From contig CAXXIA010000002.1 in assembly GCA_963666985.2 (NCBI GenBank), positions 2,048,001-2,112,000 on the forward strand: a stretch of DNA of 64,000 nucleotides, read 5' to 3'. The notes beneath the pieces were generated by a model. The model did not search any database. It had not been told where the DNA came from and saw nothing but the letters and a program-made list of their open reading frames with translations. This document shows, one piece after another, positions 35,057 through 58,841 of the stretch; within the stretch, counting starts at the first letter, position 1; each line of letters begins with the position of its first letter. This DNA is from Spirochaetia bacterium. Its GTDB lineage: Bacteria; Spirochaetota; Spirochaetia; DSM-2461. The position numbers and the translations under genes were made by a program.

Positions 35057-35064
35057 ATCGGCTC

Positions 35065-39914: not shown

Positions 39915-40899
39915 TCATGATTCTTCCAGAATACATTCCACCAAAGCTGCCGCGCCGATTAATCCGGAATCCTGGGAGAAGGCCGCCGGAACGATCCTCA
40001 TCGGTTTAACAATCATGTTTTTTACCCTTGCGGTATAATGCTTTTGGATAAGGTTCATATAGGAATCCCCTAAATTCATCAGTCCGCCCCCAAGAATGAC
40101 CATCTCCGGATTGAAAATCTGAAACATGTTGTAAACGAGTAATCCGACGTAAAAAGCCGAATGTTCCATGACAGCCCCGGCAACGGGGTCTCCATTATTG
40201 ATCAGTTCCTCCAGCAAGCGGCCGTCCAACTGCCTGCCTGCGGTGCGGTCGGGGAATTCTTCTGAAAAACGAACGGATAAAAGGTGACGCTGCTCATCAT
40301 ATTGCCGATTCATGCAGACTGTGGCCGCTTCACTCATAACGCATCCGTAGTTGCCGCAAGTGCATTGAATCCGAGAGTGTGGATTTACGATTGTGTGCCC
40401 AACCTCTCCCGCTGTTCCTGAATCGCCATGAACCAGTTTGCCGCCGATAATGATACCGGCACCGATTCCTGTGCTTACGGTAATGAAGAGCATATCGGAG
40501 ACTCCCTTGCCTGCTCCGAAGCGATGTTCTCCGCAGGCCTGGGCATTGGCGTCGTTATCGACGTAAACAGGAATGTTGAAGTGTTTTTGAAGTTCTTCTC
40601 GAATTGAAAACCCCTCGTAGCATTGAAAATTACTGGTAGTGATACAAGTGCCTTCGGGATAACGGAGATGGCCGGCAAATCCGACGCCCAAACCAATAAT
40701 ATCCGTTTCCGATATGTTGTTTTTTTTGCCAGAGTTTTTTGGTGGTTGACGCAATAAGTTCGATGGTTTCTTCCTCGCAGCAGCCGACATGTTCATAGAG
40801 AACTATTTTGTCGAGGAGATTTCCGTCTTGTGGATGTATCAGTCCGAGAGCAAGTTTTGTACCCCCGATATCAACGGCTGCCAACAGCTTTTTATCCAT
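39915..40899 (-). CDS. ROK family sugar kinase, frameshifted in an A8 run at 40720-40727
   Basis: VDIGGTK in ORF 40630-40899; DNDANA, STGIGAG, GEVGH, CTCGNYGC in ORF 39915-40796; an A7 run would fuse them. Confidence 0.88.
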
Positions 40900-40909
40900 A
40901 GTTAGAATC

Positions 40910-43312
40910 CTAAACCGATAGATTCAATTCCGTTCTGGCTATTATATCATCCTGGGTATCCGGCGACAAATTGGTAAAAAATGCCGAGTATCCGGCAACC
41001 CGTACGATGAGATCCCGATGGGATTCCGGATCCGATTGAGCGGCCAACAGAGTTTCCCTGTCAACGATGTTGTACTGGATATGCCATCCCTTTAAACCGT
41101 CAAAGAACGTATGGAGCAGTGATGCCAGAAGTTGGCGCTGATGAGGATTCTGAAGCATCTGGGGCGACATCTTCTGATTCAGCAACACACCTCCGGTGAT
41201 GTCTTCGGTAGGCAGTTTTGAGATGGATTTCATAACCGCCGTGGGGCCCAGTTTATCGGCCCCGCCGCTTGGGGAAGCGCCTTCGGCAAGGGGTTTACCG
41301 GATTTTCTTCCGTCGGGAGTCGCCGGCACCACGGCGCCGGCCGGAACATTGCCTGAAATACTTGACGTACCGGCGAAGTATCGGCAGCCGACGGCACCGC
41401 TTCCTTCCCTGATGGTTCGATAGTTCTTAATCTCTTCTATATAAGGAGCGTAAGCCCGAACAATCAGCTTATCGACATAGTCGTCATCGTTGCCGTATTT
41501 GGGCGCATGATTCATCAGCATCTGCCTTACCTTCTCTCCCTGTGGAGTGGAAAAGTCGGATTCAAGAGCTTCCAGCAACTGATCAACAGATATTCGTTGT
41601 TCCTCAAAAATGAGTTTCTTAATAGCCGCCAGAGAATCCGCAAGGTTGGCGATGCCCACCTGAAGACCTGAAACGAAATCATATTTACAGCCGCCTTCAT
41701 GAATCGTCATGCCCCGCTCCAGACAGTTATCGGTAAAGGCCGAGCAGAGAATATCCGGAGCTTCATCCCTCAGGACTATATCGATAGCCGAATCAATGGC
41801 AATTCCCGCCCCGGCATAAAAGCGTACTTGTTCATCCCAAGCTTCCATCAATTCATCAAAGGAACAGAAGTTCCGCAAATTCTTTTTGCTCGGATGAAAC
41901 GTTTTGCCGCTGGGTTTGTCCTCACCTCCGTAAAGGACGGCCATAAAGACTCTCATGAAGTTGAGAAAGTGTTTTCCCGTACAGCGGTAACCCCAAAGTC
42001 CGGGAATGGCAACTTCTATGCATCCGATGGCCGAATAGTCCCAGGCATCATCGGGATCAATTCCAAGTTTTCCCAGAGCCGGAAGAACCACCGAATCATT
42101 ATTAAACGCGGGCATTCCGAATCCCAGTCTGATAACTTCGATGCATTCGGAGAGAAACTCTTTGTTGATTCCGGGATGAAACCGCACGGAAAGATTGGGC
42201 TGGGTGAGCCGAGCGGCTCCTACCGATCTCAGGATAAGGAAGCTCATATCATTCACGCCGTCTTTATAATCCCGGGTTTGTCCGCCGATTGTAACATTCT
42301 GATAAAGAGGTCCGCCGGCGGAGAATCGTGTGTGAGACCAAGAACGGATTTTCTTAATGGAAACCATTTTTAGCCACATATTGGTGAGTGCTTCCATGGC
42401 CCAATTCTCGTCAAAAGTCCCTTTACTGCGGTCGGCTTCCAGAAAAGGCTGTAGGTATTGATCCAATCGTCCCATCGACAGGGAGTGTCCGTTGCTTTCT
42501 ATTTGAAGAACAACCTGGACGAACCAGCAAAGCTGCAGCGCCTGTTTGAAATTGACCGGTGGTTGTGTAATTAGGTGACGGCAGTTTGAGGTAATGGACC
42601 GCAGTTCTTCACGGCGTTTTTCGTCCGTGCATAAGTCGGCTTGAATCTGCGCCAAGTCGGCGAATCGGTTAATATAAATTTGAAAAGCTTCAATACCGAG
42701 AGCAATGGCTCTGTAGAAATGATACTTTTTTATTTCCGCTTCGTTAGTCATTCTCTTGCATTCTTCCTGCCGACCCAGAGTTTCATCCAGATAACTTTGC
42801 AATCCCCTGTTCAGCAGCTTGCGGAAATGAATGGCGATATGAGCGTCTCCTGAAGTGAGATTTCCTTCAGCCCTGATTATCTGAGCGCTGTGGATTTCCC
42901 GGAGTCTGTCGCTCATCATGGAACGGCCCTTATCAAGAGTCGTTTTTCCGTTCCACCATGTGCAGAGTTCCAGTAATTCTTTCTTGGTCTTATCATCCGG
43001 AAAGTAAGCATCTCCCGGGCGTTTTTCGAATTCATCAATTTCTTTTACAATCCATTCGGTCGCGTATTCCGGGAAAATGGGAGCGGCATAGATTGCGCTG
43101 GAATGATTTCCGACGATGATGTCTTCCGGCTCAATAACGAGAGTCATGTTCGTCAGTGTTTCTTTTAAGGCCAGGGCTCGTTTTACCACTATGGGCAGAC
43201 TGGGATTTGTCCTATAGATTTCAGTATAGTATCTGGCACGTTCGAGACAGATTGTCGGCTTTGTGGAAAGGATTCGGTTCCGATAGTCGTTCATTCTTTG
43301 TGACAGTTTCAT
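40910..43312 (-). CDS. ybiW: Glycyl radical enzyme, YbiW (PflF)-like
   Basis: TSGDAH, ESNGHS, SHTRFSAGGPLYQNVTIGGQ, IGCIE...WGYRCTG, TSSIS, RVAGYSAFF; start MKLSQ at 43312. Confidence 0.85.
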   Translation of the reverse strand: MKLSQRMNDYRNRILSTKPTICLERARYYTEIYRTNPSLPIVVKRALALKETLTNMTLVIEPEDIIVGNHSSAIYAAPIFPEYATEWIVKEIDEFEKRPGDAYFPDDKTKKELLELCTWWNGKTTLDKGRSMMSDRLREIHSAQIIRAEGNLTSGDAHIAIHFRKLLNRGLQSYLDETLGRQEECKRMTNEAEIKKYHFYRAIALGIEAFQIYINRFADLAQIQADLCTDEKRREELRSITSNCRHLITQPPVNFKQALQLCWFVQVVLQIESNGHSLSMGRLDQYLQPFLEADRSKGTFDENWAMEALTNMWLKMVSIKKIRSWSHTRFSAGGPLYQNVTIGGQTRDYKDGVNDMSFLILRSVGAARLTQPNLSVRFHPGINKEFLSECIEVIRLGFGMPAFNNDSVVLPALGKLGIDPDDAWDYSAIGCIEVAIPGLWGYRCTGKHFLNFMRVFMAVLYGGEDKPSGKTFHPSKKNLRNFCSFDELMEAWDEQVRFYAGAGIAIDSAIDIVLRDEAPDILCSAFTDNCLERGMTIHEGGCKYDFVSGLQVGIANLADSLAAIKKLIFEEQRISVDQLLEALESDFSTPQGEKVRQMLMNHAPKYGNDDDYVDKLIVRAYAPYIEEIKNYRTIREGSGAVGCRYFAGTSSISGNVPAGAVVPATPDGRKSGKPLAEGASPSGGADKLGPTAVMKSISKLPTEDITGGVLLNQKMSPQMLQNPHQRQLLASLLHTFFDGLKGWHIQYNIVDRETLLAAQSDPESHRDLIVRVAGYSAFFTNLSPDTQDDIIARTELNLSV

Positions 43313-43314
43313 GT

Positions 43315-44208
43315 TCAGCCTCCTATGCTTGCTGTGATTCCTTGTTCTTCCGCATATTCTCGGTATGGAATCAGAATCTCCGGATTCATCATGGTCAGAG
43401 GGAGGTTGTACTCCCGCCCAAGCATGGTGCTTTTTGATGCGCCCAGTGAGTGATAAGGCAGAAGATCTATTCGGGTAATACCCCATTCGGCCGCTCTTCG
43501 AATAATGGACTTAAGGCTTTTGTCGTCATTATTAAACCCATATATCACCGGAATCCGGGCTCGCAGCGGAACTTTTGACTTAAGGATTTTTAGAAAATTA
43601 CTTTCAACCAGCGACAAATCGCCTCCTGTGTACCGGCGGAATATTTCGGGATCGGTGTGTTTGAGATCACAAAGAAATTCATCAATAACGGGCAGAACGG
43701 TTTCAAGGTTGGTTTGCTGTACATGGAGGCAGGATTCAACCGCACACCGAATCCCTTCGTTTCTGAGGATCTGAGCTGTTTCGGCCAGAAAGTCCGCCTG
43801 CAGCAGCGGTTCTCCGCCGGAGAATGTAACACCGCCGCCCGAGGGGCCATAAAATACGGCATCCTTTCTGACAACAGCGGCGATTTCCGATGGAGAGTAG
43901 AAATGCCCTTTAATGTTTAAGGCTTTTGTTGGACAAAAAAACGCCCTTTCATCACATAATACCTCTCGTGAAGAGAATACAAGCTCTCCGGAAACCTCGG
44001 ACATCGGACCATTTTCAATCGAAAGACAGTCCCGACAGCCTATACAGCGTGATTTCTGATAGAGAAATTCCGGTTTCCGGAGCATCCCTTCCGGATTGGC
44101 GCACCACGGACAGAAAAGTGGACAGCCTTTTAAGAACACGACAGTTCTCAGGCCCTCTCCGTCATGTATGGAAAATCTTTGGATATCAAATACTAATCCG
44201 GTAGTCAT
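43315..44208 (-). CDS. Glycyl-radical activating enzyme (radical SAM)
   Basis: FDIQRFSIHDGEG, GCPLFCPWCANPE, ferredoxin-like CIGCRDC, GGVTFSGGEP; start MTTGL at 44208. Confidence 0.92.
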   Translation of the reverse strand: MTTGLVFDIQRFSIHDGEGLRTVVFLKGCPLFCPWCANPEGMLRKPEFLYQKSRCIGCRDCLSIENGPMSEVSGELVFSSREVLCDERAFFCPTKALNIKGHFYSPSEIAAVVRKDAVFYGPSGGGVTFSGGEPLLQADFLAETAQILRNEGIRCAVESCLHVQQTNLETVLPVIDEFLCDLKHTDPEIFRRYTGGDLSLVESNFLKILKSKVPLRARIPVIYGFNNDDKSLKSIIRRAAEWGITRIDLLPYHSLGASKSTMLGREYNLPLTMMNPEILIPYREYAEEQGITASIGG

Positions 44209-44221
44209 GACGGTATGAATA

Positions 44222-44303
44222 TATACTTTCCAACGAAAGTATACCAGCTTTCTATCGAAGGTTATAAGAGTTTCATTGACAACAAACAACAGTCCATTAT
44301 GAT
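44222..44303. promoter_or_regulatory. Divergent promoter region with phased CTTTC-N4-GAAAG boxes
   Basis: Perfect IR TATACTTTC-CAAC-GAAAGTATA; further half/degenerate boxes at +22 and +44 bp; TTGACA (44276)-16-TATGAT for deoR. Confidence 0.65.
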
Positions 44304-44314
44304 GGAACTGCAAA

Positions 44315-45070
44315 ATGACCAACTTCAATCAGCGTCAAAACGACATCATCAAGATTTTAGGCAGTCGGAAGCAGGTTTCCGTGAAGGAATTGTCGGAGGA
44401 ATTCACAGTTTCTTCGGTTACTATTCGTACGGATCTGGGGATTTTGGAAGAACAGGGACTGGTTATCAGAACTCATGGAGGCGTGGAACTGCCGTCATCC
44501 GATAATCTTTCACGCCGTTTGGCCCAAAATTATGCCCAGAAAAGTTCCATTGCCGAAGCGGCCTTGCGGTTTGTCAGTTCCGGAGACTCAATTCTTTTGG
44601 AATCCGGCTCCTGTGTAGCGCTTATGGCTCGGCTTCTCGGTGGAAAGAGGCGACTGACCATTACAACCAACAATGCTTTCGTTGCCCGGCAGATACCGAA
44701 ATCCCAAGACCTGAAGGTTGTTCTCATAGGCGGTGTTTTTCAACAGGAAAGTGAAACAATGGTGGGCGGGATGGTTAAGGAATACCTAAATTATTTTAAC
44801 TTTGATAAGGTTTTCATGGGAGTGGATGGAATCGTGCCTGAATACGGTGTTATGTGCCGTGATATAGAACGGGCGGAAGTCATGGCCGAATTTGTCGATC
44901 GGGCCGGAGAAGTGATTCTGCTTACCGATTCAACCAAATTCGGCCGAATGGGCCTTAAAACATTCAGCCCCCTGGAAAAAATCAGTCGGATTGTTACCGA
45001 CAGCGGTATTTCCGATGAGGCAAAGGAAACAATCACGAAAGCAGGAGTGGAATTGCTTATCGCAGGCTGA
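44315..45070 (+). CDS. DeoR/GlpR family regulator
   Basis: VSSVTIRTDLGILEEQGLVIRTHGG, DSTKFG. Confidence 0.93.
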   Translation: MTNFNQRQNDIIKILGSRKQVSVKELSEEFTVSSVTIRTDLGILEEQGLVIRTHGGVELPSSDNLSRRLAQNYAQKSSIAEAALRFVSSGDSILLESGSCVALMARLLGGKRRLTITTNNAFVARQIPKSQDLKVVLIGGVFQQESETMVGGMVKEYLNYFNFDKVFMGVDGIVPEYGVMCRDIERAEVMAEFVDRAGEVILLTDSTKFGRMGLKTFSPLEKISRIVTDSGISDEAKETITKAGVELLIAG

Positions 45071-45090
45071 GGTCCGCGAAATCTTATATG

Positions 45091-46062
45091 CTATACGGCT
45101 TCCCGTTTTCTTTTTCTACTGTAACTGTCAAGGCAGAGAATCGTTACAACGACGACTCCCCGTATAACTTCCTGAGCATAGGGACTTACTCCCAGCATGT
45201 TCATGGAGTTCTCCATGACTCCAAAAACAAGGTATCCAACCAGGGCCAGGGGTGCACCGCCAACCCCGCCCGCCAGAGATGTGCCGCCGACAACGACCGC
45301 ACTAATAACGACAAGAGGAATCCTATCACCGTATATTGAGGATCCGGTATTCAATGTAGAGGACAGCAGGACTCCGGAAAACGCCGCCATCGCTCCGCAT
45401 ATGACATAGGTGGCAGCCTGAATCTTGCGGACGCTGATTCCGGAATATTCTGCAACCTCATAATCGCCGCCGATTGCATAAATATTTCGACCGAACTGTG
45501 TGTAGCGCAGCAGAATATGCACCAAAGCAAAGATGATAAGCATGATGACAATCAGATTGGGAATAACTCCGAAAAGCATACCATTGCCGATCATCATGAA
45601 TTTTACATTGCTCGGTGAAACAGGATGAGCATCGGTCAGCTGCTGGGCAACCCCTGTTAATACCAGCCCCATTCCAAGCGTTATAATGAAGGGAGCACAT
45701 TTCTGATAAACCACCAGAAAGCCGTTAATCAATCCGATAAAAGCTCCGACAAGAACCGCACAGATAATTGAAAGCCATATCGGCAGTCCGGCATTCATAC
45801 ACATGATGGCGATAATACCGCCGAGACAGAGTGTTCCTCCAATGGAGAGATCGATTCCTTCGCCGATTATAACCAGAGTTATACCGAAGGCAAGAACAAT
45901 GTAAATTGAAGCGGAGTTCAGCAAATCAAGAAGGTTGTAACTGGTAAAGAAATTTGTCGGGAAAAAAATCATAAAGAATAGAATGGCGATTATTGCCAGT
46001 ACTGCTTTTTGCTTTGTTATGAGCTTTATGATATTTCCGCTTTTTGCCTGATTGTTCATCAC
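45091..46062 (-). CDS. Sugar ABC permease (RbsC-like)
   Basis: GIDLSIG, TQFGRNIYAIGG, AVVVGGTSLAGG. Confidence 0.92.
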   Translation of the reverse strand: MMNNQAKSGNIIKLITKQKAVLAIIAILFFMIFFPTNFFTSYNLLDLLNSASIYIVLAFGITLVIIGEGIDLSIGGTLCLGGIIAIMCMNAGLPIWLSIICAVLVGAFIGLINGFLVVYQKCAPFIITLGMGLVLTGVAQQLTDAHPVSPSNVKFMMIGNGMLFGVIPNLIVIMLIIFALVHILLRYTQFGRNIYAIGGDYEVAEYSGISVRKIQAATYVICGAMAAFSGVLLSSTLNTGSSIYGDRIPLVVISAVVVGGTSLAGGVGGAPLALVGYLVFGVMENSMNMLGVSPYAQEVIRGVVVVTILCLDSYSRKRKREAV

Positions 46063-46073
46063 TGTTACCTTTT

Positions 46074-47081
46074 TTAGCGTTGTCTTTTTGCGTCTAACCA
46101 GATTGCAGAGACCAGAATTAGTCCTCTCATAATATTTTGCATAAAAACATCAATTCCAAGCATGTTCATGCAGTTGCCGAGGAGGATAACCAGCAACGTC
46201 CCGATAACCGTTCGAATAACGCTGCCCTTGCCGCCAAGCAATGATGTACCGCCTACAACAACCGCCAGAATTGCTTGTGTTTCGTATCCTTTACCCAGTG
46301 TCGGTGATGCTTGAGTTACTCGTGAAAACAGAATTATACCGCTGAGTCCGGCCATAAAACCGTTTATGGTAAACATACAGATAATGCCTTTAGTTATTGA
46401 GATACCGGAAAGTCTTGCTGCGGTTTTATTTCCGCCTATAAGGTTTATTGTACGTCCCAGATAGGTTTGGCTCTGAAATATATAAAGGATGGTTACGATA
46501 AAAAGGAAGATTAGAAACGATACGGAGAAAATGCCGACAGTTCCCGAACCGATAACCGTAAACAGGGAGTAATCCGCTTCCATATAAGTCAGGTAATGAG
46601 TGACTCCGCCGGTATAAAGCATCGCCAGACCACCGAAAACAACCATTGTCCCATAGGTAATAAAAAGAGCTTCCGCCTGAGTCGTTGCTCCGCTTCCCAA
46701 TATGAGCAGGCTGTTGATAAATCCGCAAAGTGCTCCGGCAATTAATCCCGCAATAAGCGCCGTAACCATGCCATAAGGTTCGATCATTGAATGGGTTATA
46801 ACAACAACCAGAGGAATGGTCCCTGAAACCGAAAGATCGATAAAACCTCCGATGATGACAAAGGTCATTCCGAGGCAAACCATAATGAGCGGTCCGAATT
46901 GCCGCATGATATTCGTCAGATTTGCAATGGTGGCAAATTTCGGTTCAATTATTATGGTGATGATCGAGAGGATGGCAATAGCGAACAAAACCATATATTC
47001 CTTGGAAAATTCAACGATTGCACTTCGATCAATTTTAATTCGTTTTAAGAGAGGCTCTTTCAATGACAATTGCTCGGACAT
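46074..47081 (-). CDS. Sugar ABC permease (RbsC-like)
   Basis: FIDLSV, IGGNKTAARLSGI, AVVVGGTSLLGG. Confidence 0.92.
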   Translation of the reverse strand: MSEQLSLKEPLLKRIKIDRSAIVEFSKEYMVLFAIAILSIITIIIEPKFATIANLTNIMRQFGPLIMVCLGMTFVIIGGFIDLSVSGTIPLVVVITHSMIEPYGMVTALIAGLIAGALCGFINSLLILGSGATTQAEALFITYGTMVVFGGLAMLYTGGVTHYLTYMEADYSLFTVIGSGTVGIFSVSFLIFLFIVTILYIFQSQTYLGRTINLIGGNKTAARLSGISITKGIICMFTINGFMAGLSGIILFSRVTQASPTLGKGYETQAILAVVVGGTSLLGGKGSVIRTVIGTLLVILLGNCMNMLGIDVFMQNIMRGLILVSAIWLDAKRQR

Positions 47082-47095
47082 GCCTCAACTCCTTG

Positions 47096-48649: not shown

Positions 48650-48683
48650 AGCTGGGATGTTTCATTGTTGAAACATCCCAGCT
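48650..48683 (-). terminator. Perfect 15-bp stem-loop between the SBP and ATPase genes
   Basis: AGCTGGGATGTTTCA-TTGT-TGAAACATCCCAGCT. Confidence 0.6.
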
Positions 48684-48803: not shown

Positions 48804-49763
48804 CTACCACTCAGGAGGAGTGAAATTATCAATATTGGATAAATCAACAATATCAAGTGGAACAAAATTGACGACTTTTTCGATTTGTTCGCCGTTAAGA
48901 ATTTTCTTTGCTGTATCAAGAGTAATTTGTGCCATCTTTTCGAAATTCTGCATGATCGTTACGCTCTGTTTCCCGCTTCTGACTTGATCAAAGCCTGCTT
49001 TGTTGCCGTCAACACCAACCATGAAAATCCCTGTCATATTTGCGGTTTCAAGGGCATTCAGAATACCTGTGGCTCCGCCGTCCCAATGACAGAAGACGCC
49101 TTCTATTTCATTACCATGCTTAACGATCATGTCTTCCATAATCATCATTGCCTGATTGGTATCCCATTGCTGGCAGGCTTTATAATCGATGACTTCAAGG
49201 TTGCTTCCGGCGATTTTCTTATTGAAGCCGTCATGCCTTTTAATTTGAGCGTCATGCCCGGACTGACCGCCGATTTCAACAATTTTTGCGCCATTCGGGA
49301 AATGATTCAGAAAAGCCTGACCTGCGGCTTCGCCGGCCATCAGGTCGTTAACACCGACGAAAAAGGATCTGGCGGTATCGGCGTATTCGGGAGGGACATC
49401 GGAAGAGAACATTCCGACAACAACGCCGGCGGCCTTTGCTTTTACCAGTGCCGGTACAATGGCATTAATATCATTCGGATTGAGAAAAATAGCATCAAGC
49501 TTCTGGGCAACCGCATTATTGACCAGTTGTGATTGTACCTGTGCATCACCTTTCCCGTCCAGGATTACGACTTCCAGGCCATAATCCGGAGCGTACTTCT
49601 GAAACATTTTAGCGGCAAAGGCTTGGGAAGGATTAGCCATTTCTCCCGGAATGAATGCAACTTTTGGCATACCGGAAGCGGATGAGTCATTTTGGCCGTT
49701 CGCAAACGCCATTGTAGCAACCATCAGTACGGCACAAATCAGTGCAATAACCTTGTTTTTCAT
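48804..49763 (-). CDS. Sugar ABC substrate-binding protein (RbsB-like)
   Basis: Signal peptide (..AFANGQ); RHDGF, WDTNQA, GVDG, TIMQ. Confidence 0.9.
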   Translation of the reverse strand: MKNKVIALICAVLMVATMAFANGQNDSSASGMPKVAFIPGEMANPSQAFAAKMFQKYAPDYGLEVVILDGKGDAQVQSQLVNNAVAQKLDAIFLNPNDINAIVPALVKAKAAGVVVGMFSSDVPPEYADTARSFFVGVNDLMAGEAAGQAFLNHFPNGAKIVEIGGQSGHDAQIKRHDGFNKKIAGSNLEVIDYKACQQWDTNQAMMIMEDMIVKHGNEIEGVFCHWDGGATGILNALETANMTGIFMVGVDGNKAGFDQVRSGKQSVTIMQNFEKMAQITLDTAKKILNGEQIEKVVNFVPLDIVDLSNIDNFTPPEW

Positions 49764-49796
49764 AGTTACCTCCATTTTGATACTATGATGTGTATC

Positions 49797-50285
49797 TCAA
49801 GCCGATTTCTCAGCTTTTTCCCGTTTTATAAACTCTCTTACGATTGAAACCACAAGATTGTGGTCTTCTTCGTCCGGCAAGCCGCTGACGGTAATAGTAC
49901 CGACAGGGCCTACGTTTCTAATCAGTATTGGAAAAGCACCGCCGAAAGCGGAATATTTCATACTGTCCAAAAAGAACATGTTTTCCATAGTTGATTCATT
50001 TTTTTCCAGGAGCGCCTTGATATAGGAAGAACTTTTTCCAAAATGATTAACAATGCGATTTTTCCGTTCTATCCACCGGTCGTTGTCCCGAGATGTTCCT
50101 TCGCACGCGTAGTGGAATATTTTCTGTGAGTTTTTTTCGATATCAATGGTTATCGGATATTTTTTTTCTTCTGCAACGGCCGCAATTCGCAGACCAACCT
50201 CCAGAGCGAGGCTGTTGGAAAAAGAATAGAACTGTAATTCATCATGTTCACATTCCTTCTTTGCCAAAAGATTATTTTGAGCCAC
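49797..50285 (-). CDS. GlcG/HbpS-like (UPF0303) putative heme-binding protein
   Basis: GTSRDNDRWIERKNRIV...GGAFPI...GTITVSGLPDEEDH. Confidence 0.8.
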   Translation of the reverse strand: MAQNNLLAKKECEHDELQFYSFSNSLALEVGLRIAAVAEEKKYPITIDIEKNSQKIFHYACEGTSRDNDRWIERKNRIVNHFGKSSSYIKALLEKNESTMENMFFLDSMKYSAFGGAFPILIRNVGPVGTITVSGLPDEEDHNLVVSIVREFIKREKAEKSA

Positions 50286-50769: not shown

Positions 50770-50832
50770 TTGACAACTCTATTAGGGGCTTATAGTATTC
50801 GCAATTGACAAATATAAACTTTCATATGAAAG
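50770..50832 (+). promoter_or_regulatory. Promoter and palindromic operator upstream of the aroE-like gene
   Basis: TTGACA (50770)-17-TAGTAT; perfect palindrome CTTTCATATGAAAG at 50819-50832. Confidence 0.6.
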
Positions 50833-50885
50833 CCTTGGGTCGTGCTTTTTTTTGACTTAATTTTTACAAATTGAAGGACTGAATA

Positions 50886-51749
50886 ATGAAAGAGCAGAAT
50901 TATCTTGATAATCTGGTAGGCGTTTTCGGGCATCCTGCCGCAGAAAATCCCGGTGTTGTTATACAAGAAGCGGCATTCAAGGACTTGGGTCTCGAACGAT
51001 GGCGATTTTTAACCATAGATGTCGATCCGGGGAATTTGCCTGACGCCCTGGCCGGTCTCAAGGCCATGAAAATGAGAGGCATAAACTGCACCCTTCCTCA
51101 TAAACTTGATGTTTTGAATTATCTTGATGAGATATCGCCCTCGGCAAAACTCATCGGTGCGGTAAATATGATTGTTAATAACGGCGGCAGACTGTTCGGT
51201 GAGAATACCGACGGAAAAGGATTCATGGAATCTCTTAAAAGCAGGGAGATTTCTCCTGAAAAGAAAAACGTCGTAATCCTCGGTGCGGGCGGGGCAGGCC
51301 GGGCCATTTCCATAGAAATGGCATTAGCCGGTGCGGAACATATAACAATCGTGAATATTCCTCAAGATGAGAAACTGGCTTATTCATTAATGGAAGTTCT
51401 TGAGAAACAAACGAAAGCAACAGCCGAATATGTCCCTTGGACCGATCAATTTAAAGTGCCGCCGGATGCGGAAATTCTGATCAATGCCACACCGATCGGT
51501 CTTTATCCCGATATAAACCAAAAGCCGAATATCGACTATAACACCATTCGCCCCGAATTGTTCGTTCAGGATGTCATACCTAATCCGGCTTTTACGGCAT
51601 TTCTTGCCGAAGCGGAAAAAAGAGGAGCCTCATGGAATACAGGTATGGGAATGCTGATAAATCAGGCCGCCATTAATATTGAAATGTGGACAGGGAAAAA
51701 ACCGAATAAAGAAGTCATGATAAAAGCCTATCAGGACGTAATCGGATAG
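50886..51749 (+). CDS. Shikimate/quinate dehydrogenase-family protein (atypical)
   Basis: GINCTLPHK, GAVN, NTDG, GAGGAG, NATPIG; lacks the HSxSP motif. Confidence 0.85.
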   Translation: MKEQNYLDNLVGVFGHPAAENPGVVIQEAAFKDLGLERWRFLTIDVDPGNLPDALAGLKAMKMRGINCTLPHKLDVLNYLDEISPSAKLIGAVNMIVNNGGRLFGENTDGKGFMESLKSREISPEKKNVVILGAGGAGRAISIEMALAGAEHITIVNIPQDEKLAYSLMEVLEKQTKATAEYVPWTDQFKVPPDAEILINATPIGLYPDINQKPNIDYNTIRPELFVQDVIPNPAFTAFLAEAEKRGASWNTGMGMLINQAAINIEMWTGKKPNKEVMIKAYQDVIG

Positions 51750-51757
51750 AACGGCCG

Positions 51758-52630
51758 ATGGAGAAAATACTGGTTACAGGCGGTACCGGTTTCATCGGCA
51801 GCCGAATTTATCATACGTATCACGGCCAATACGACATATTGGCGCTTTCATCCAAGGATATGAATATTCTGGATAAATCCGCTGTGGATGAAACGATTTC
51901 CACCTTTAATCCGGACTATGTTATTCACTGCGCAGCCGTTGCCGTTACCGAGTATTGCAATAAAAATCCCGAACACTGCCAAGCGGTCAATGTTGAAGGT
52001 ACGGTTAATATTGCCGAGTCCTGTTTGCATAATAAATGCCGTCTTGTTTTTTTGAGTACCGAACAGGTTTTTAACGGAAATACGAATCCCGGACCATATT
52101 CCGAAACCGACGAACCGCATCCCGATACGGTCTACGGACAAAACAAGCTTGATGCTGAAAACAAAATACAGGAGATTTGCGGCGACAGTCTGATTTTAAG
52201 ATTAACTTGGTTCTTTGGTGTACCGCAAAAATTTCAGCCGGCAAAGGGGACCATTCTCTGGGATACGATAGAAAAAATACTTTCCGGAAAACCGTTCAAT
52301 GTTGCTGTGAATGAATTTCGCGGCCTGAGTTATGTCGATGAATTAATGGAACTAATTCCTACTTTACTGGATCTTCCTCCGGGAATTTACCATACCGGCT
52401 CCCGGAATCCCATGAACCGATATGAATCGGTCTGCCATATATTCAAAGAGCTGGGATTGGAACAGAGAATAGAGGACCTGGTTCGTGCCGATTACAACAA
52501 GTATTCACAGAGTCCCCGGGATATTAGGCTCAATACGGGTAAGCTGCGGGATGCGGGAATCGTGTTTTCCGAAAGTCCTGACGCCATCAGCCGGTGTATC
52601 AGGGAATACGGTATCAGCTGTTCGGGATGA
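51758..52630 (+). CDS. RmlD-like extended SDR
   Basis: TGGTGFIG, HCAA, STEQVF, YGQNK. Confidence 0.82.
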   Translation: MEKILVTGGTGFIGSRIYHTYHGQYDILALSSKDMNILDKSAVDETISTFNPDYVIHCAAVAVTEYCNKNPEHCQAVNVEGTVNIAESCLHNKCRLVFLSTEQVFNGNTNPGPYSETDEPHPDTVYGQNKLDAENKIQEICGDSLILRLTWFFGVPQKFQPAKGTILWDTIEKILSGKPFNVAVNEFRGLSYVDELMELIPTLLDLPPGIYHTGSRNPMNRYESVCHIFKELGLEQRIEDLVRADYNKYSQSPRDIRLNTGKLRDAGIVFSESPDAISRCIREYGISCSG

Positions 52631-53369
52631 CGACTTCAATATTGCGGCTTGTGAAGTAATTATAATATTCTTCAGGGATGTTCCTGTCCGTTATCAGATA
52701 CTGGATATCCTCACCGCTGCAGTATTTAGACAAGTTGATTTTCCCGAATTTTGAGGAATCCGTCAGGATATATGTTTGCGGACTTCTCTGAATAATTGTC
52801 GAATTGATATCGGCCCTCATCATGTTTTTTCCGGTGAAGCCTGTTTCTACGGTAAAACCGTCTACACCGATAAAGGCCTTACTGAAATTGAGAAAATTCA
52901 GGCATTCTTTCACCAAATTACCAACCAGGCATTCACTTTCATGCTGATAGATACCGCCAAGAAGAATGACTCGTCCTTCTGCGTTCTTGCCGATCTGTCT
53001 TGCAATAAAGGCATTTGATGTAATAATCGTCGTGGATTTACGTTCTTTCACAACTTCGAGAGCAAAAAGAGCATTTATCGAACCCGATTCAACATAAATG
53101 GTCTCGCCTTCATTCACAAATTGAATTGCCGCTCTGGCGATCAGCAGTTTCTCTTCATAATTAATTCCCATTCGATGGGAGATATCATCGGTTTCATCCA
53201 GGATGGCTCCTCCATGAACCCTTCTGAGGAATCCGTTCTTCTCGAGAGCCGTCAAATCTTGTCTTATCGTTGCTTGTGAAACAGTGAGTTTTTCAGCAAG
53301 CTCGTTTACCGCAACTTGTTTTCCATTGGACAGTATATTCAGAATCTGTCTGTGTCTTTTATTCATCAT
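52614..53369 (-). CDS. DeoR/GlpR family regulator
   Basis: VSQATIRQDLTALEKNGFLRRVHGGA, DSSKFG. Confidence 0.93.
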   Translation of the reverse strand: MMNKRHRQILNILSNGKQVAVNELAEKLTVSQATIRQDLTALEKNGFLRRVHGGAILDETDDISHRMGINYEEKLLIARAAIQFVNEGETIYVESGSINALFALEVVKERKSTTIITSNAFIARQIGKNAEGRVILLGGIYQHESECLVGNLVKECLNFLNFSKAFIGVDGFTVETGFTGKNMMRADINSTIIQRSPQTYILTDSSKFGKINLSKYCSGEDIQYLITDRNIPEEYYNYFTSRNIEVVIPNS

Positions 53370-53671
53370 CGTTCCAGATTTTTGCCCGTAATTTCCGACA
53401 CAATGGCATTTCTATTGAGGTCAGTACCGAAAATCATATCATCATCATTCGTGAGTGTAAAATGCATCATGAGAAATATAATGACTTTCTTCCGATGTAA
53501 AAAAAACTTCGAATAGTCCCCGTAAAAAACTTTTTTGGATGTTCAGCGCCACTTTCATTGGTTCAGAATCCTCCACCTCTTGGTCTGGAATTTCGGTTTC
53601 GCCGACCTTGTTGCGGTTCTAAACTGTTACTCGTCGGATGTACCTGAGGATGAAGGTACCGGGAGATAACC

Positions 53672-56044
53672 ATGCGTGATTACGCCGAACAGATTGCCGC
53701 ACTGGATCGCTTTCATAGAATTGAAAGGCTTAAAAAGGACATGCTGGGAGAAACCCGCTATGTTTCAATGGATCAAGCCCGAATTATCACCCGCATTTAC
53801 AAGGAAACCGAGGGTGAACCGACGAATATACGCCGAGCACGGTCATTGGCGGCCGCTCTGGAGGAGATCCCGATCAGAATCGATTCCGGTGAGCTTATTG
53901 TCGGAAACCGAACCCCAGGAATCCGCAATGGAGTCGTTTTTCCCGAGGGAGGGCTTTCCTGGGTGGATAAGGAGTTGGAAACCCTCAGTACCCGCCCTCA
54001 GGATCGATTTGAGGTTCACCCTGAAGACATTCCCTATTTTCGGGAGGAACTCTATCCATATTGGAAAGGAAAAACCCTTGAAGACGTGGTGAATGCGGAA
54101 CTCGGAGAAGATGTCAAATCCATGGCTCGGGTGGTGAAGATCAACCAAAAAGACCATGCCCAGGGACATATTTGTCCGGATACGCCGAAATGGCTGCGCC
54201 TCGGTCCCAAAGGTTTGATCGAAGAAGCCCAAAAGGCTTCCGGAAGAACCGGTGATTCGAACAGATTTCTGGAAGGAGTCATCATCTCCCTGGAAGGCGC
54301 CCGAACTTTTATGCTTCGGTATGCCGATCTGGCCGAAGATCTGGCCGCCGCCGCCGTTCCGGTTCAAGCTTCCGAATTGAGCGAAATCGCACGAATCTGC
54401 CGTAAGCTGAAGGATTTCCCGCCGTCATCCTTTCATGAAGCGCTTCAGTCTCTATGGTTCCTCTATGTCATTCTGCATATGGAATCCAACGCATCTTCTT
54501 TTTCTCCCGGAAGGATGGATCAGTATTTGATGCCTTTCCTTCGGCAAGATCTGGGTTCCGGTCTGCTGGATATGGCGGGAGCCCTGGAGCTGGTGGAAGC
54601 CCTTTGGCTGAAGTTCAACCAGATTGTTTATCTTCGGAATTCCACAGGAGCAAAATACTTCGCCGGATTTCCCATCGGTTTCAATGTGGCTCTTGGAGGT
54701 CAGGATGAAGCGGGTAATGATGCCTCCAATGAGTTATCTTTTCTGTTTTTAAAAGCCCAGGAACATTTGGGCCTTCCCCAACCGAACCTGTCGGCCCGGA
54801 TTTATAAAGGCAGTCCCGAAGATTTGCTGGATACCTGTTCCCGGGTTATCGGCCTTGGAAGCGGCATGCCTCAGATATTTAACGATGAAGCGGTCATCCC
54901 CGCTCTTCGGGGAGTGGGAATCTCCGAAAAGGATTCCAGAAATTACGCCGTTGTCGGCTGTGTTGAGCTTACCACCCAAGGGAACAATTTGGGCTGGAGC
55001 GACGCGGCGATGTTCAACTTGGTGAAAGTCCTGGAACTGACGCTGAACGACGGCGTGGATCTTCTCGACGGAGCCGGGAGCGGTTTGAATCTGGGTACTC
55101 TGGAAGATTTCGACACTTTTGAAAAACTTGAAAAAGCATATGAAACGCAGGTGGATTATTTTATCGACCGAATGATTCCCGCCTGTCATATCGTGGATCG
55201 CATTCATGGTGAAATTGTTCCGTCTCCTTTCCTCTCGTCGGTTATCAACAACTGTATTGCGAAAGGCATCGATGTTACCGACGGAGGTGCCCACTATAAT
55301 CTGTCGGGAATACAGGCTATTCAGCCGGCCAATATCGCCGATAGCCTGGCGGCGCTGAAAACCCTGGTATACGACCAAAAAACAGTTTCCAGGTCCGAAC
55401 TTCTTCAAGCCCTCCGTTCCAATTTTGAGAACAGCGAGATTCTCCGTCAGCGGCTTCTGAACAAAGCACCCAAGTACGGTAACGATATCGAATGGGTTGA
55501 TGAATTGGGCCACAAGTGGATAAAGCACTTCGCGGATCGGTTAAAGGAATTCACCAATCGCCGGGGCGGTCCGTATCACACCGGGCTCTATACCGTTTCC
55601 GCCCATGTTCCCATGGGGCAGAATGTCGGTGCTACCCCAGACGGGCGAAAATCCCGGGAGCCGCTGGCAGACGGAGGGATGTCCGCTGTTTACGGCCGGG
55701 ATACCGCCGGCCCCACCGCGCTGCTTAAATCGGTTTCCAGGGTGGATTCCTCCCTAGGCTCCAACGGAACCCTGCTGAATATGAAGTTTTCTCCGCAGCT
55801 CTTCGGAACCGAAGAAGGGATCAAGAAATTTTCGGCCATGCTGCGGACCTTCGTCAGACTGAAGATCAGCCATGTTCAGTTTAATGTGCTTACCGAACAG
55901 GATCTTCGGGCGGCCATAGAGAATCCCGAGAAATTCCGCAGTCTGACAGTTCGAGTCGCCGGTTATACGGCCTATTTTACCGAGCTTGCCGGTGATCTTC
56001 AGGAAGAGATTATCGCCAGGACTTCGTACCTTGATGCCCTATGA
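53672..56044 (+). CDS. pflD: Glycyl radical enzyme, PflD-like
   Basis: INQKDHAQGH, ESNASSFS, YFAGFPIG, VVGCVEL, AMFNL, YTVSAHVP, RVAGY. Confidence 0.8.
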   Translation: MRDYAEQIAALDRFHRIERLKKDMLGETRYVSMDQARIITRIYKETEGEPTNIRRARSLAAALEEIPIRIDSGELIVGNRTPGIRNGVVFPEGGLSWVDKELETLSTRPQDRFEVHPEDIPYFREELYPYWKGKTLEDVVNAELGEDVKSMARVVKINQKDHAQGHICPDTPKWLRLGPKGLIEEAQKASGRTGDSNRFLEGVIISLEGARTFMLRYADLAEDLAAAAVPVQASELSEIARICRKLKDFPPSSFHEALQSLWFLYVILHMESNASSFSPGRMDQYLMPFLRQDLGSGLLDMAGALELVEALWLKFNQIVYLRNSTGAKYFAGFPIGFNVALGGQDEAGNDASNELSFLFLKAQEHLGLPQPNLSARIYKGSPEDLLDTCSRVIGLGSGMPQIFNDEAVIPALRGVGISEKDSRNYAVVGCVELTTQGNNLGWSDAAMFNLVKVLELTLNDGVDLLDGAGSGLNLGTLEDFDTFEKLEKAYETQVDYFIDRMIPACHIVDRIHGEIVPSPFLSSVINNCIAKGIDVTDGGAHYNLSGIQAIQPANIADSLAALKTLVYDQKTVSRSELLQALRSNFENSEILRQRLLNKAPKYGNDIEWVDELGHKWIKHFADRLKEFTNRRGGPYHTGLYTVSAHVPMGQNVGATPDGRKSREPLADGGMSAVYGRDTAGPTALLKSVSRVDSSLGSNGTLLNMKFSPQLFGTEEGIKKFSAMLRTFVRLKISHVQFNVLTEQDLRAAIENPEKFRSLTVRVAGYTAYFTELAGDLQEEIIARTSYLDAL

Positions 56045-56949
56045 TTTTCGGCACCATCTTCGACCTGAAGCGTTTCGCCCTTCATGACGGATCGGGTTTG
56101 CGTTCCACGCTGTTTCTGAAAGGATGTCCTCTTACCTGTCCGTGGTGTCAGAATCCTGAAGGGGTAAGTCCCCGGATTCATCTGCGGTGGATCGCGTCAA
56201 AATGCATTCGGTGCGGGCTCTGTGTCGACTCTTGTAACGACGGGACGCTTTCCAGGGCTGAAAACGGCGATATTCATATTCATCATTCCGTGAGCGGCGA
56301 TTTGAAAAAATATGTGGATATTTGCCCTACCGGAGCCCTTTGCTTCGACGGCCGCAGAGTTTCCGCCGACGAGATAGCCGGAGAACTTCTCTCCGATCGT
56401 GTTTTCTTCGAATCTTCCGGCGGCGGTATCACTCTCAGCGGCGGTGAACCGCTCGCGCAGCCGGCGTTCTCCGCGGAGGTTTTGCGGCTTTGTCGGGAAG
56501 CCGGTATCTCAACGGCCCTGGAAACCACTCTCGGCGTCCCTATGAACGCCGTAAAGACTGTTTCGCCTTATACCGACCGCTTCCTGGCGGATATGAAGAT
56601 AGCCGATCCTGAGGACCATCAACGAATTCTGAATGCTGATGTTACGACCGTACGGGCTAATCTGGAATTTTTATTGAAACACGGGGCTCATGTTCTGGTT
56701 CGCATAGCCCTTATTCCGGGTTATACGGCCCGGGAAGAAAACCTAAGGGGTTTAGGGAAGTATATCTCAACCCTCCGTCCCCAGCCGCCGGTGGAACTGC
56801 TGAACTTCAACCCTTTGGCGGAAAACAAGTACAGGCTGCTGGGTCGGCACTGGCCCATTCCTAAAGAGACGCCCCGATTTTCTCCGAAAGAGCTGAATCA
56901 TTTTGCCGATGTGCTTTCGAGTGTCGGCGTGAAAAGGATGGAATCATGA
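56041..56949 (+). CDS. Glycyl-radical activating enzyme (radical SAM)
   Basis: HDGSG, GCPLTCPWCQNPE, CIRCGLC...ICPT, GGITLSGGEP; ATGA overlap with the GRE. Confidence 0.92.
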   Translation: MIFGTIFDLKRFALHDGSGLRSTLFLKGCPLTCPWCQNPEGVSPRIHLRWIASKCIRCGLCVDSCNDGTLSRAENGDIHIHHSVSGDLKKYVDICPTGALCFDGRRVSADEIAGELLSDRVFFESSGGGITLSGGEPLAQPAFSAEVLRLCREAGISTALETTLGVPMNAVKTVSPYTDRFLADMKIADPEDHQRILNADVTTVRANLEFLLKHGAHVLVRIALIPGYTAREENLRGLGKYISTLRPQPPVELLNFNPLAENKYRLLGRHWPIPKETPRFSPKELNHFADVLSSVGVKRMES

Positions 56950-58841
56950 AAAACGACATCTCCGCCGGTGCCGCTCTCGATGATATGATCGCCGAGGCGG
57001 AACTGGGACATTCGGTGTATATCACCAGGGTACACAATCTTTTCGAGAACAATCCCCATGGCATAGATTTAAAGCTTGTCTTGGATTTTGCCGGAGGGAT
57101 GGCATCCAGAAGTTTTCCGGTTCGTCTCCCTCTTCCTTCCGAGCTCTCACACAATCAGGCCGAACTGGTTCATGAATATCTGTGTGCCGTGATATACAAC
57201 CTGATTTCCACCTACGGCGGAAGCACGCTGACCTTTTTCAGACCCCTTGGGATATCGGGTCTTGATGAACTCCTCGATTCGGCTGCCGCCGAGTTTTATT
57301 CCGAGAAATCCAAAAAAGAGAGACAGGGTTACGGCCGCTGCCTTAATGTCGCCGAACGAACCGCCGATGCCCTTGACGGTTTGGCGCCGGGTACTGTGCG
57401 ATTTGTTTTTCAGAAGAAAGACGCCGACGGAATATCGAATTCACATCTGATTCAGATGGCCGTTGATACTCCGGAGACGGCCGGAGATGCCGGTTCGGTT
57501 ATCGACAGACTGAAGGATCTGCCGGAGCGTTTGTCGGGAAAAACGATTCTGGGATTGGACATCGGCGGAAGCGATATCAAAGCGGTTCTCGCCATGGACG
57601 GCCGAATTATCGCGTATAAAGAATATGATTGGTTTCCCGCGCGGTTCACCGTCAGCAGGCAATTGGCGGATCCCGTATTGCTTATTGCCCGATGGGCCCG
57701 AATCCGGGCCGCCGTTGAGAAAACCGGCCTGCTTCAGGCGAATGAATTCATTGAATTAAGAGATCTTCTGGATGAAGTTTCATCGGCAGAGGTTTCGGAT
57801 GAAAAGCTGGAAATGGCGGTTCTTGAAGCCGAAAAAAGATTTTGCGAATCCGCGAACGCACCCTTGCCGGGTCTGGATGCCGTCGGCCTCTGTTTTCCCG
57901 ATGTTGTCGTGAAAAATAAAATCGTCGGCGGCGAGGTTTATAAGACTCGGGGAATCCGAAATAATCCAGCCATCGAATACGAAAAGGATTTTCGTACCTT
58001 AACCGATTTGGATCTGCGTCTTGCCGAATTCTGTATAAAAACTCCTGACGGCGCCGTGGTTCGAAATACCAATGACGGCCCCATGGCGTCATTCACTTCC
58101 GCCGTAGAGAGAGCCTTTTCCGGCGAACAGGAGGTCAATAAGGGTGTTTTCGCCCATACTTTGGGCACGGAGCTTGGAACCGGCTGGCTGACTGCGGCGG
58201 CCGAGCTGCCGACAATTCCTCTTGAGGTTTATAATTACGTTATTGATCTGGGTTCAAGAAAAGAACGGCGATATCAATCCGACGATCCCCGAAGCCTCAA
58301 TAATTTCAACACGGGAATACCGGGAACTCTCCAGAAATACACCAGCCAGAGCGGCGTCTTCCGACTGGCCGTGAAATATTTTCCGGAACAGCGTCCCGAT
58401 TTGTATGCCGAACTCTACAATAAAGGATTTATTGAAAATAAAGACAACGGTGAAATCCTGATTTGTCAGAACCCCCGGGACATGCGGAAACCCCTGCTTG
58501 AGCATCTTATGGCGCTTCCTGAGAGAGAAGGGGAAGATGGTGTCTGCGGCGAAATATTTCGGGAAATCGGTGAATATTTGGCCGTAACCTGGGATGAAAC
58601 CAGACGCATTCTCGCTCCCTTGGCCGCTGATCGGGTTCTTTTCGGCCGGCTGGTGAAGAACCCCGTTTGTTTCCGTCTGATGCAGGAAGGGGCGAAGCGT
58701 ATCGCCGGAGATTTGCAGCTGGTTGTTGCCGATGACGAATCGGCCTGGACGCCTTTAATGAGGCAGCTTCGGGATGATGGACGCTATACGGTGGCCCAGT
58801 TCGCTCAGGCGGTGGGAGCGGTTTACTACGCTTTATTGTAA
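56946..58841 (+). CDS. Large atypical ROK/ASKHA-fold protein, putative sugar kinase
   Basis: LGLDIGGSDIK, VGLCFPD, NTNDG, TLGTELGTG, C-terminal AQAVGA; ~195 aa N-terminal extension. Confidence 0.65.
   Translation: MKNDISAGAALDDMIAEAELGHSVYITRVHNLFENNPHGIDLKLVLDFAGGMASRSFPVRLPLPSELSHNQAELVHEYLCAVIYNLISTYGGSTLTFFRPLGISGLDELLDSAAAEFYSEKSKKERQGYGRCLNVAERTADALDGLAPGTVRFVFQKKDADGISNSHLIQMAVDTPETAGDAGSVIDRLKDLPERLSGKTILGLDIGGSDIKAVLAMDGRIIAYKEYDWFPARFTVSRQLADPVLLIARWARIRAAVEKTGLLQANEFIELRDLLDEVSSAEVSDEKLEMAVLEAEKRFCESANAPLPGLDAVGLCFPDVVVKNKIVGGEVYKTRGIRNNPAIEYEKDFRTLTDLDLRLAEFCIKTPDGAVVRNTNDGPMASFTSAVERAFSGEQEVNKGVFAHTLGTELGTGWLTAAAELPTIPLEVYNYVIDLGSRKERRYQSDDPRSLNNFNTGIPGTLQKYTSQSGVFRLAVKYFPEQRPDLYAELYNKGFIENKDNGEILICQNPRDMRKPLLEHLMALPEREGEDGVCGEIFREIGEYLAVTWDETRRILAPLAADRVLFGRLVKNPVCFRLMQEGAKRIAGDLQLVVADDESAWTPLMRQLRDDGRYTVAQFAQAVGAVYYALL

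Follow-up and report, generated by a model that had tools for sequence, protein, structure and literature searches.

A putative phosphotransferase-independent variant of anhydroglycolysis in a spirochaete locus with two glycyl-radical enzymes

The anhydroglycolysis of Escherichia coli was reportedly described by Ma et al. 2024 in JACS. Two glycyl-radical enzymes (GREs) are involved: YbiW, a 1,5-anhydroglucitol-6-phosphate C-O lyase, and PflD, a 1,5-anhydromannitol-6-phosphate C-O lyase (PMC13450708, PMC12441222). Here, we analysed a locus of an anaerobic Spirochaetia bacterium that combines counterparts of both oxygen-sensitive enzymes with an ATP-binding cassette (ABC) transporter and two predicted sugar kinases. 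It lies at 39915..58841 of a window of 64,000 nucleotides (assembly GCA_963666985.2, contig CAXXIA010000002.1), which is part of a 4.86-Mb, 93%-complete assembly. We read the locus as a form of anhydroglycolysis that is independent of the phosphotransferase system (PTS) and has two anhydro-sugar branches, and we put the probability of this reading at roughly 70%. Its novelty would be that of a variant of the known E. coli pathway with a new kinase family. Open-access text yielded no paper that connects these GREs with uptake by ABC/ROK or with an enzyme resembling ketofructose reductase, while Ma et al. 2024 itself may mention ABC/kinase variants.

Compared to the ybiY-ybiW / fsaA locus of E. 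coli, the spirochaete locus shares the orthologous GRE and activase, a YciT-like repressor and the same palindrome, but adds an ABC transporter and a ROK kinase, carries genes of a shikimate-dehydrogenase-like (SDH-like) and an RmlD-like enzyme in place of fsaA, and is joined to a PflD-type branch. With the frwCB-pflDC-frwD / ptsA-fsaB-gldA / yijO locus it has in common a PflD-group GRE with its activase and an AraC regulator behind. However, its GRE belongs to a sister clade, a ROK-fold kinase without annotation and ABC uptake replace the Frw PTS, and the genome has no match to FsaB or GldA. Two locus features of E. coli-type anhydroglycolysis, PTS uptake and fructose-6-phosphate aldolase (FSA)/GldA, are therefore absent.

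In the proposed scheme, the ABC transporter would take up 1,5-anhydrohexitols or 1,5-anhydrofructose as their precursor. The ROK kinase would convert 1,5-anhydroglucitol to 1,5-anhydroglucitol-6-phosphate, the substrate of GRE1, and the second kinase, a protein of 631 aa, would convert 1,5-anhydromannitol to 1,5-anhydromannitol-6-phosphate, the substrate of GRE2. Each GRE, switched on by its own activase, would take a hydrogen from C2 and open the ring to yield 1-deoxyfructose-6-phosphate, which would leave by a route other than FSA. The SDH-like enzyme would be a conserved part of the pathway, acting either at the exit (C5 oxidation to DKFP, short for 6-deoxy-5-ketofructose-1-phosphate) or at the entry (anhydrofructose to anhydromannitol); in the exit variant, aldol cleavage of DKFP would give dihydroxyacetone phosphate (DHAP) and methylglyoxal or, after a reduction, lactaldehyde. 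The YciT-like DeoR proteins would repress the YbiW and oxidoreductase promoters via the palindrome. Substrates and reactions are predicted throughout; gene identities, folds, residues, co-occurrence and the recurrence of the candidate operator were observed.

Gene families were assigned by Pfam and NCBIfam matches, and all genes lie at the place and on the strand given in an earlier reading of the sequence without database searches (the sequence-only reading). It had described ROK, GRE1 and activase genes on the minus strand divergent from DeoR1, a central sugar ABC operon with two oxidoreductases, which we identify as a CUT2 transporter (minus) and the SDH-like and RmlD-like genes (plus), and DeoR2 (minus) divergent from GRE2, an activase and a ROK-like gene (plus), the latter encoding the 631-aa protein. 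As a correction, the likely start sites are at 40899 (ROK), 43312 (GRE1) and 44208 (activase 1). The reading did not note the frameshift of the ROK gene, the kinship of the SDH-like gene to 5-ketofructose reductases and its YciT-type palindrome, or the size of the family to which the 631-aa protein belongs. Most counts among relatives refer to two surveys: the best 80 of at least 316 genomic relatives of the 631-aa kinase with their neighbours within 10 kb, and the best 80 of 385 metagenome loci of the SDH-like gene, some of which duplicate the genome set. Single loci are given as L and genomes as G numbers. The features are:

39915..40899, minus: ROK-family kinase, putative 1,5-anhydroglucitol kinase (PF00480; one-base frameshift in homopolymer 40720-40727)
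40910..43312, minus: GRE1, YbiW ortholog by identity and clade, putative 1,5-anhydroglucitol-6-phosphate ring-opening isomerase
43315..44208, minus: activase 1, YbiY-like radical S-adenosylmethionine enzyme (TIGR02494 over cut-off; 40% identity to YbiY)
44226..44261, no strand: 14-bp palindrome present twice (44226-44239, exact; 44248-44261, with one mismatch), putative DeoR operator of YciT type
44315..45070, plus: DeoR1, YciT-like repressor
45091-46062 and 46074-47081, minus: CUT2 permeases (family matches)
47096-48583, minus: ABC ATPase (orthologous ATPase in 28/80 kinase loci)
48650..48683, no strand: perfect 15-bp inverted repeat between the binding-protein and ATPase genes; may form an mRNA-stabilising hairpin
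48804..49775, minus: sugar-binding protein of the ABC transporter (PF13407; orthologs in 28/80 kinase loci)
49797..50285, minus: HbpS/GlcG-like small protein (PF03928; recurs in 12/80 kinase loci)
50819..50832, no strand: the same 14-bp palindrome in exact form, upstream of the SDH-like gene
50886..51749, plus: shikimate-dehydrogenase-fold oxidoreductase (SDH-like) of the 5-ketofructose reductase class
51758..52630, plus: RmlD-like reductase of the short-chain dehydrogenase type (PF04321)
52614..53369, minus: DeoR2, second YciT-like repressor (43% identity to DeoR1)
53672..56044, plus: GRE2, PflD sister clade, probable 1,5-anhydromannitol-6-phosphate ring-opening isomerase
56041..56949, plus: activase 2 (TIGR02494 over cut-off)
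56946..58841, plus: 631-aa ROK-fold kinase (by structure model) with an extra N-terminal domain of ~195 aa, putative 1,5-anhydromannitol kinase
58856..59659, minus: cupin-AraC regulator, outside the range given originally (related AraC in 20/80 kinase loci)

Glycyl-radical enzymes of the YbiW and PflD groups

By identity and phylogeny, GRE1 is orthologous to YbiW. It shares 53% identity with the E. coli protein, scores 925 bits against the YbiW structures among the PDB sequences compared to 573 for the next class, and is nested with E. coli YbiW with a support of 100 (FastTree with SH-like support; 96 rows, made up of 74 of the top 79 cluster representatives plus the locus and E. coli proteins). 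When the window protein was aligned with its E. coli counterpart and with 12 of the 17 copies from the loci, H165, H282, S283, R330, C441, E443, R453, T455, S662, S663 and S665 (E. coli YbiW numbering) proved invariant in 14/14. Apart from C441 and E443, we take these residues by analogy to be likely positions of the 1,5-anhydroglucitol-6-phosphate pocket, for which 8ID7 is the reference structure; a few neighbouring columns vary. C441 and E443 themselves are the catalytic pair of YbiW (PMC13450708). In four spirochaete loci (L004, L008, L015, L029), the YbiW gene has no adjoining activase in the fetched stretch and only that of GRE2 is present, so that one activase may serve both enzymes.

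GRE2 is placed by the same tree in a sister clade of PflD (clade support 99), within the group that holds E. coli PflD (support 96) but not inside the PflD clade. The identity to E. coli PflD is 44%, the best PDB matches are PflD with 682 and 664 bits, followed by glycerol dehydratase with 616, and the score against the PflD model of NCBIfam, PRK09983, is 785 bits and hence under the cut-off of 1109. C430, E432 and G764, the equivalents of PflD Cys431/Glu433 and the glycyl loop, are invariant in 42/42 rows (41 of 52 copies from the loci together with the window protein). The assignment of GRE1 as YbiW-type and GRE2 as PflD-type, both with intact catalytic motifs, is supported: the Cys-loop Cys/Glu and the glycyl-radical loop are present in both. 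The structure model of GRE2 has a pLDDT of 88.7, and its fold does not separate PflD from diol dehydratases. A function as glycerol or propanediol dehydratase was ruled out by sequence score, tree and gene context.

The separate clade raises the question of whether a different sugar, such as another anhydro-hexitol or an anhydro-pentitol phosphate, is the substrate of GRE2 and the 631-aa kinase. Besides the moderate identity to PflD, this would account for three changes near the pocket (H162, W442 and S443, which differ from PflD and are invariant in 42/42 clade members aligned), for the distinct kinase family, and for the AraC regulator and the GC content of the GRE2 module above that of the rest of the locus. 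Nevertheless, we consider it unlikely. GRE2 matches PflD at the Cys/Glu pair, R322, two Phe of the third barrel strand, D444 and Y640-H645, and most columns near the predicted 1,5-anhydromannitol-6-phosphate site (reference structure 8ID0) are alike. In addition, a canonical PflD (69-71% identical to that of E. coli, with E. coli-type residues at the 162/442/443 places) occurs in L016, L173 and L178 with the same 631-aa kinase and SDH-like gene behind it, in two cases also with the same ABC permease. Since the kinase, transporter and oxidoreductase partners also flank canonical PflD, the substrate of GRE2 is probably still 1,5-anhydromannitol-6-phosphate. The sequence-only reading had proposed that it may be new; the active-site differences it pointed to are real and clade-wide, but the conclusion drawn from them is weakened by these shared partners.

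Further GREs were seen in this context. Third GREs of other, uncharacterised types adjoin the GRE2 module at L022:3069-5369, L063:2554-4854 and L027:2951-5329; the one in L027 groups with E. coli PflD, but Gln replaces its Cys-loop Glu. The genome itself encodes five GREs, none of them a classical pyruvate formate-lyase. Three lie outside the locus (G000:C2:2521424-2523403, C2:1398326-1399861, C1:75836-77176) and match no characterised class over its cut-off; the first adjoins a sugar ABC transporter, an FGGY kinase and an LsrF-type gene.

Two predicted kinases of ROK type

The sequence-only reading had proposed one ROK-type kinase per GRE, which agrees with a PF00480 match for the first kinase and a ROK fold for the 631-aa protein. 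An additional base in the 8-base homopolymer 40720-40727 breaks the frame of the ROK gene, to which an intact ortholog aligns in two frames. A ~95% identical strain (857 differences over 19.2 kb; runs X2 and X3 of one sample) has one base fewer in this run and an intact ROK frame; in a near-identical strain, the contig breaks off within the homopolymer. Therefore, the frameshift is probably an assembly error.

For the 631-aa protein, neither Pfam (E 0.01, including PF00480) nor NCBIfam nor the PDB sequences gave a match. It has 1154 relatives among 8000 candidates scored. A model built with 50 sequences reached a pLDDT of 90.6, and its residues 199-631 match ROK kinases with a Z of 20.6 and an rmsd of 2.7 over 282 aligned positions at 14% identity; the atlas likewise suggests ROK (0.93; 43% of members carry the family). 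D205, N376, D377 and E427 are invariant in the family, with D205 and D377 present in 50/50 sequences. Of the ROK motif Glu-x-Gly-His, E427 is kept while the His is replaced by N430; a zinc-cysteine cluster is absent, and the invariant Q463 aligns with the position of the ROK acid at the anomeric OH (profile alignment, probability 71%). The protein thus appears to be a ROK-fold kinase with an extra N-terminal domain, from a large family without annotation. Like the ROK sugar kinases NanK (2AA4) and glucokinase (3VGK), with which it shares the fold over 199-631, it keeps the phosphate-1 Asp and the Asn-Asp and Glu sugar ligands; unlike them it is twice as long with its additional domain, is less than 20% identical, lacks the zinc-cysteine motif, and has Asn and Gln in place of the His and the anomeric Glu.

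This last position may bear on the substrate. An acid two residues past the final zinc cysteine serves ROK kinases as a sugar ligand (PMC5458393), and D187 of NagK engages the 1'-OH (PMC10031466); judged from the consensus, D187 would be this very acid. The position is Met or Ile in 12/12 aligned ROKs of the clusters (the window ROK and 11 of 13 orthologs, the two cut by locus ends being left out) and Glu in 4/4 aligned ROKs from GRE-less loci (4 of 5 could be aligned). Consequently, both kinases are without the acid gripping the anomeric OH, which fits anhydro-sugars. In five clostridial loci (L037, L045, L050, L053, L057) the 631-aa kinase has no GRE nearby and follows a URO-D-like gene and a canonical ROK, probably with a second function.

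The SDH-like enzyme and possible routes into and out of the pathway

Concerning uptake, the sequence-only reading had seen ABC transport instead of PTS. Pfam and NCBIfam matches gave no PTS gene in the window, and 160 related loci have no match to FrwB, FrwC or PtsA; elsewhere in the genome, however, there are four matches to enzyme I above cut-off and an EIIC of the fructose family, so that the statement holds for the locus only. The missing aldolase, by comparison, extends from the locus to the genome: a search for transaldolase (TAL)/FSA (PF00923; the control was positive in 10/14 genomes) found no match in the 93%-complete assembly, nor did tblastn with FsaA, FsaB or GldA. Without FSA, 1-deoxyfructose-6-phosphate would have to leave by another route.

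A candidate for a role in the pathway is the SDH-like protein. Its best PDB match is 5-ketofructose reductase (7COK/7COL) with 247 bits compared to 192 for the next, it is closer to 7COK than to AroE or YdiB, and it shares with this enzyme N21 and a Pro that replaces the shikimate-binding Tyr. A true shikimate dehydrogenase was therefore ruled out. Within its class, the protein belongs to a distinct subgroup tied to GRE clusters of anaerobes, most members of which have a cofactor loop without Arg, a feature that may indicate NAD preference. Besides the solved structures, the Tatumella enzyme represents the class (PMC7954740). Since a 48%-similar homolog from Clostridium pasteurianum was inactive on 5-ketofructose (PMC7954740), class membership does not fix the substrate. 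A second SDH paralog of this class (46% identity) is encoded at G000:C2:1217141-1217980. In four planctomycete loci (L040, L041, L054, L059), zinc alcohol dehydrogenases follow the kinase and an SDH ortholog is absent, possibly a non-orthologous replacement.

A GRE-module gene is present in 50/80 SDH loci and in 34/44 of those of at least 8 kb, and FSA and GldA are found in none of the 80. SDH orthologs occur in 8/301 Spirochaetia genomes, all eight of which also have the 631-aa kinase. The gene lies directly after the kinase in 40/102 loci and within 1.5 kb of YbiW in 7/102, in six of them on the opposite strand. It is often co-transcribed with ABC genes. L143 and L144 even have the E. coli ybiW-ybiY / fsaA arrangement with the SDH ortholog in fsaA's place. 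In G122 and G144 the two GRE clusters are ~150 kb apart and the SDH ortholog sits by YbiW; together with its frequent position after the kinase, this argues that the enzyme serves both branches.

One possibility, not far below an even chance in our judgement, is that the enzyme acts at the entry, reducing 1,5-anhydrofructose to 1,5-anhydromannitol (or the reverse) and, together with the RmlD-like enzyme, linking the two epimers, while the product exits by a housekeeping route. 1,5-Anhydrofructose would correspond to the pyranose form of 5-ketofructose minus the anomeric OH, and the stereochemistry that gives D-fructose (PMC7954740) would yield the manno epimer. Such a reduction of anhydrofructose to anhydromannitol is carried out by Rhizobia (PMC12441222). 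The position directly after the kinase and next to ABC genes is in line with an entry function, as is the recurrence of GMC and Gfo/Idh/MocA oxidoreductases in some loci. It leaves unexplained, however, the missing aldolase and the place of the gene by YbiW in genomes with split clusters. The GMC flavin oxidoreductase is found in L009, L012, L016, L019, L043, L044, L047, L068 and L178, in the latter between activase and kinase.

Alternatively, and more tentatively, the SDH-like enzyme could replace FsaA at the exit by oxidising C5 of 1-deoxyfructose-6-phosphate to DKFP, which a housekeeping fructose-bisphosphate aldolase would split into DHAP and methylglyoxal; the RmlD-like enzyme may first reduce the methyl ketone. 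Such an exit is suggested by the palindrome in front of the SDH-like gene, which precedes fsaA in E. coli, by the orthologs close to YbiW or in fsaA's place, and by the assignment to both branches. Furthermore, an archaeal aldolase makes DKFP from methylglyoxal and a DHAP fragment (PMC4162585), and the genome encodes two class II aldolases. The sole FSA among 160 loci (L056, with the marker residues Q59 and Y131; PMC13259622) lies in a cluster and genome without an SDH ortholog. At the genome level, however, there is no anticorrelation between the SDH ortholog and the TAL/FSA family (12/16 without against 19/33 with; 49 genomes of 50 loci; p = 0.35). G027, G037 and G069 have both, and 5/14 GRE2-bearing Spirochaetia genomes have neither. 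Moreover, the known 5-ketofructose reductases use unphosphorylated sugar (PMC7954740), and C5 oxidation would require the open-chain form. The RmlD-like gene occurs in 4/80 kinase loci and 3/80 SDH loci, and the atlas names only a generic RmlD. Near two clusters, acetoin/2-oxoacid dehydrogenase-type genes are present (L047:17293-19755, L060:9232-11184); speculatively, a thiamine enzyme could split the acyloin 1-deoxyfructose-6-phosphate.

A shared regulation of the GRE1 and SDH-like genes is suggested by the DeoR proteins and the palindrome. For both proteins the best NCBIfam match is YciT, under its cut-off, and in E. coli this regulator has binding sites upstream of ybiY, ybiV and fsaA (PMC8464067; bioRxiv 10.1101/2025.05.13.653802). 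The palindrome CTTTC-N4-GAAAG occurs exactly at 44226 before activase 1 and at 50819 before the SDH-like gene, with 13 exact sites in the genome (0.17 per 64 kb); the same sequence lies exactly between E. coli ybiY and fsaA and, with one mismatch, before ybiV. Allowing one mismatch, intergenic DNA of the 18 DeoR-bearing loci contains 18 sites, with a match in 11 loci, compared to 0.8 in shuffles (maximum 3 of 60), whereas the other 62 loci contain 8 sites compared to 2.4 (maximum 7). Hence, we propose it as a candidate operator for YciT-type regulators. The AraC regulator at 58856-59659, a weak match to E. coli YijO (32% over 94 aa), probably belongs to the locus and its GRE2 module, as related AraC genes recur in related loci.

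Relatives, conservation and surroundings of the locus

Among the 80 kinase loci, 56 contain a GRE-module gene and 53 one of the GRE2 clade; the orthologous ABC transporter is present in 28, an SDH ortholog in 22 and YbiW in 17. They come from Spirochaetota, Bacillota, Planctomycetota, betaproteobacteria, Anaeromyxobacter and Chloroflexi. The distribution of the kinase is patchy, with 5/60 relatives of the source genome and 19/301 genomes of the class. Pairing of the two GRE types is common: among the 18 other kinase-bearing genomes of Spirochaetia, GRE2 is present in 13, YbiW in 13 and both in 12.

The mirror-image design that the sequence-only reading had seen in the locus did not hold up, as relatives carry the same genes in other orders and the symmetry is thus incidental. 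Instead, GC content splits the locus in two: the GRE2 module has 51-54%, compared to 41-49% for the left and central parts. Among the matches listed, the spirochaete record L001 is the named relative closest to GRE2 (77%) and the 631-aa protein, while the nearest ABC and SDH relatives are in L004, L008 and L126 (77-88%). Given both differences, this copy of the locus looks built from two sources. One could go further and regard the halves as unrelated modules brought side by side by chance, or the left half as decaying, for which the ROK frameshift would also speak. We hold this to be very improbable, since in 17/80 loci from several phyla the YbiW gene is at most 10 kb away from the kinase and the close strain holds the whole stretch in one contig with an intact ROK frame.

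Several observations nevertheless weigh against a two-branched anhydroglycolysis. No enzyme for the exit of the product could be identified with certainty, and the ROK gene is frameshifted as assembled. Residues H162, W442 and S443 of GRE2, predicted to lie near the pocket, differ from PflD throughout its clade, and Foldseek with the GRE2 model ranks glycerol dehydratase first and PflD second, with a TM of 0.92-0.94 for all. A GRE gene is missing from 24/80 kinase loci, some of them short contigs and several long, and from 4/18 other Spirochaetia genomes with the kinase. The region upstream of GRE2 in the window has no good palindrome (best site with three mismatches), and the window-wide count of sites with one mismatch is not significant (6 versus 4.0 expected).

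If the reading is correct, the 2024 pathway of gut bacteria that use PTS would also reach into spirochaetes, clostridia, planctomycetes, betaproteobacteria and other groups, and anhydro-sugars would possibly be a wider anaerobic carbon source. In its broadest form, which we regard as rather doubtful, anaerobes of at least six phyla would run an aldolase-free and PTS-free anhydroglycolysis, in which two-domain ROK-fold kinases make 1,5-anhydromannitol-6-phosphate for the PflD sister clade and an SDH-fold enzyme oxidises 1-deoxyfructose-6-phosphate to DKFP, cleaved to DHAP and methylglyoxal or lactaldehyde. To our knowledge, DKFP is otherwise known only from the archaeal aromatic amino acid route. 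The analysis offers testable functions for a kinase family of more than 1,100 members, for a sister clade of PflD and for a subgroup misannotated as 'shikimate dehydrogenase', and it proposes an operator sequence for regulators of the YciT type. Sensing of 1,5-anhydroglucitol, a clinical marker, could likewise profit from a kinase or binding protein specific for this sugar.

Besides the genes discussed so far, a YbiU (DUF1479/Gig2-like) gene with 40-45% identity is present in the kinase clusters L012, L016, L047, L049, L151, L170-L173 and L178; in E. coli the YbiU gene follows ybiW-ybiV. Scans of the window for promoters (34 versus 28.2 expected) and terminators (23 versus 23.4) remained at chance level overall. 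Elsewhere in the window, 26254-37245 is a separate cluster with a branched-chain-type ABC transporter, two FabH-like genes, a CoA-transferase, a hydrolase and a double-TetR regulator, and 9098-17839 is a high-GC stretch (57-62%) with a MoxR-type AAA ATPase and transglutaminase-like and arginyl-transferase-like genes.

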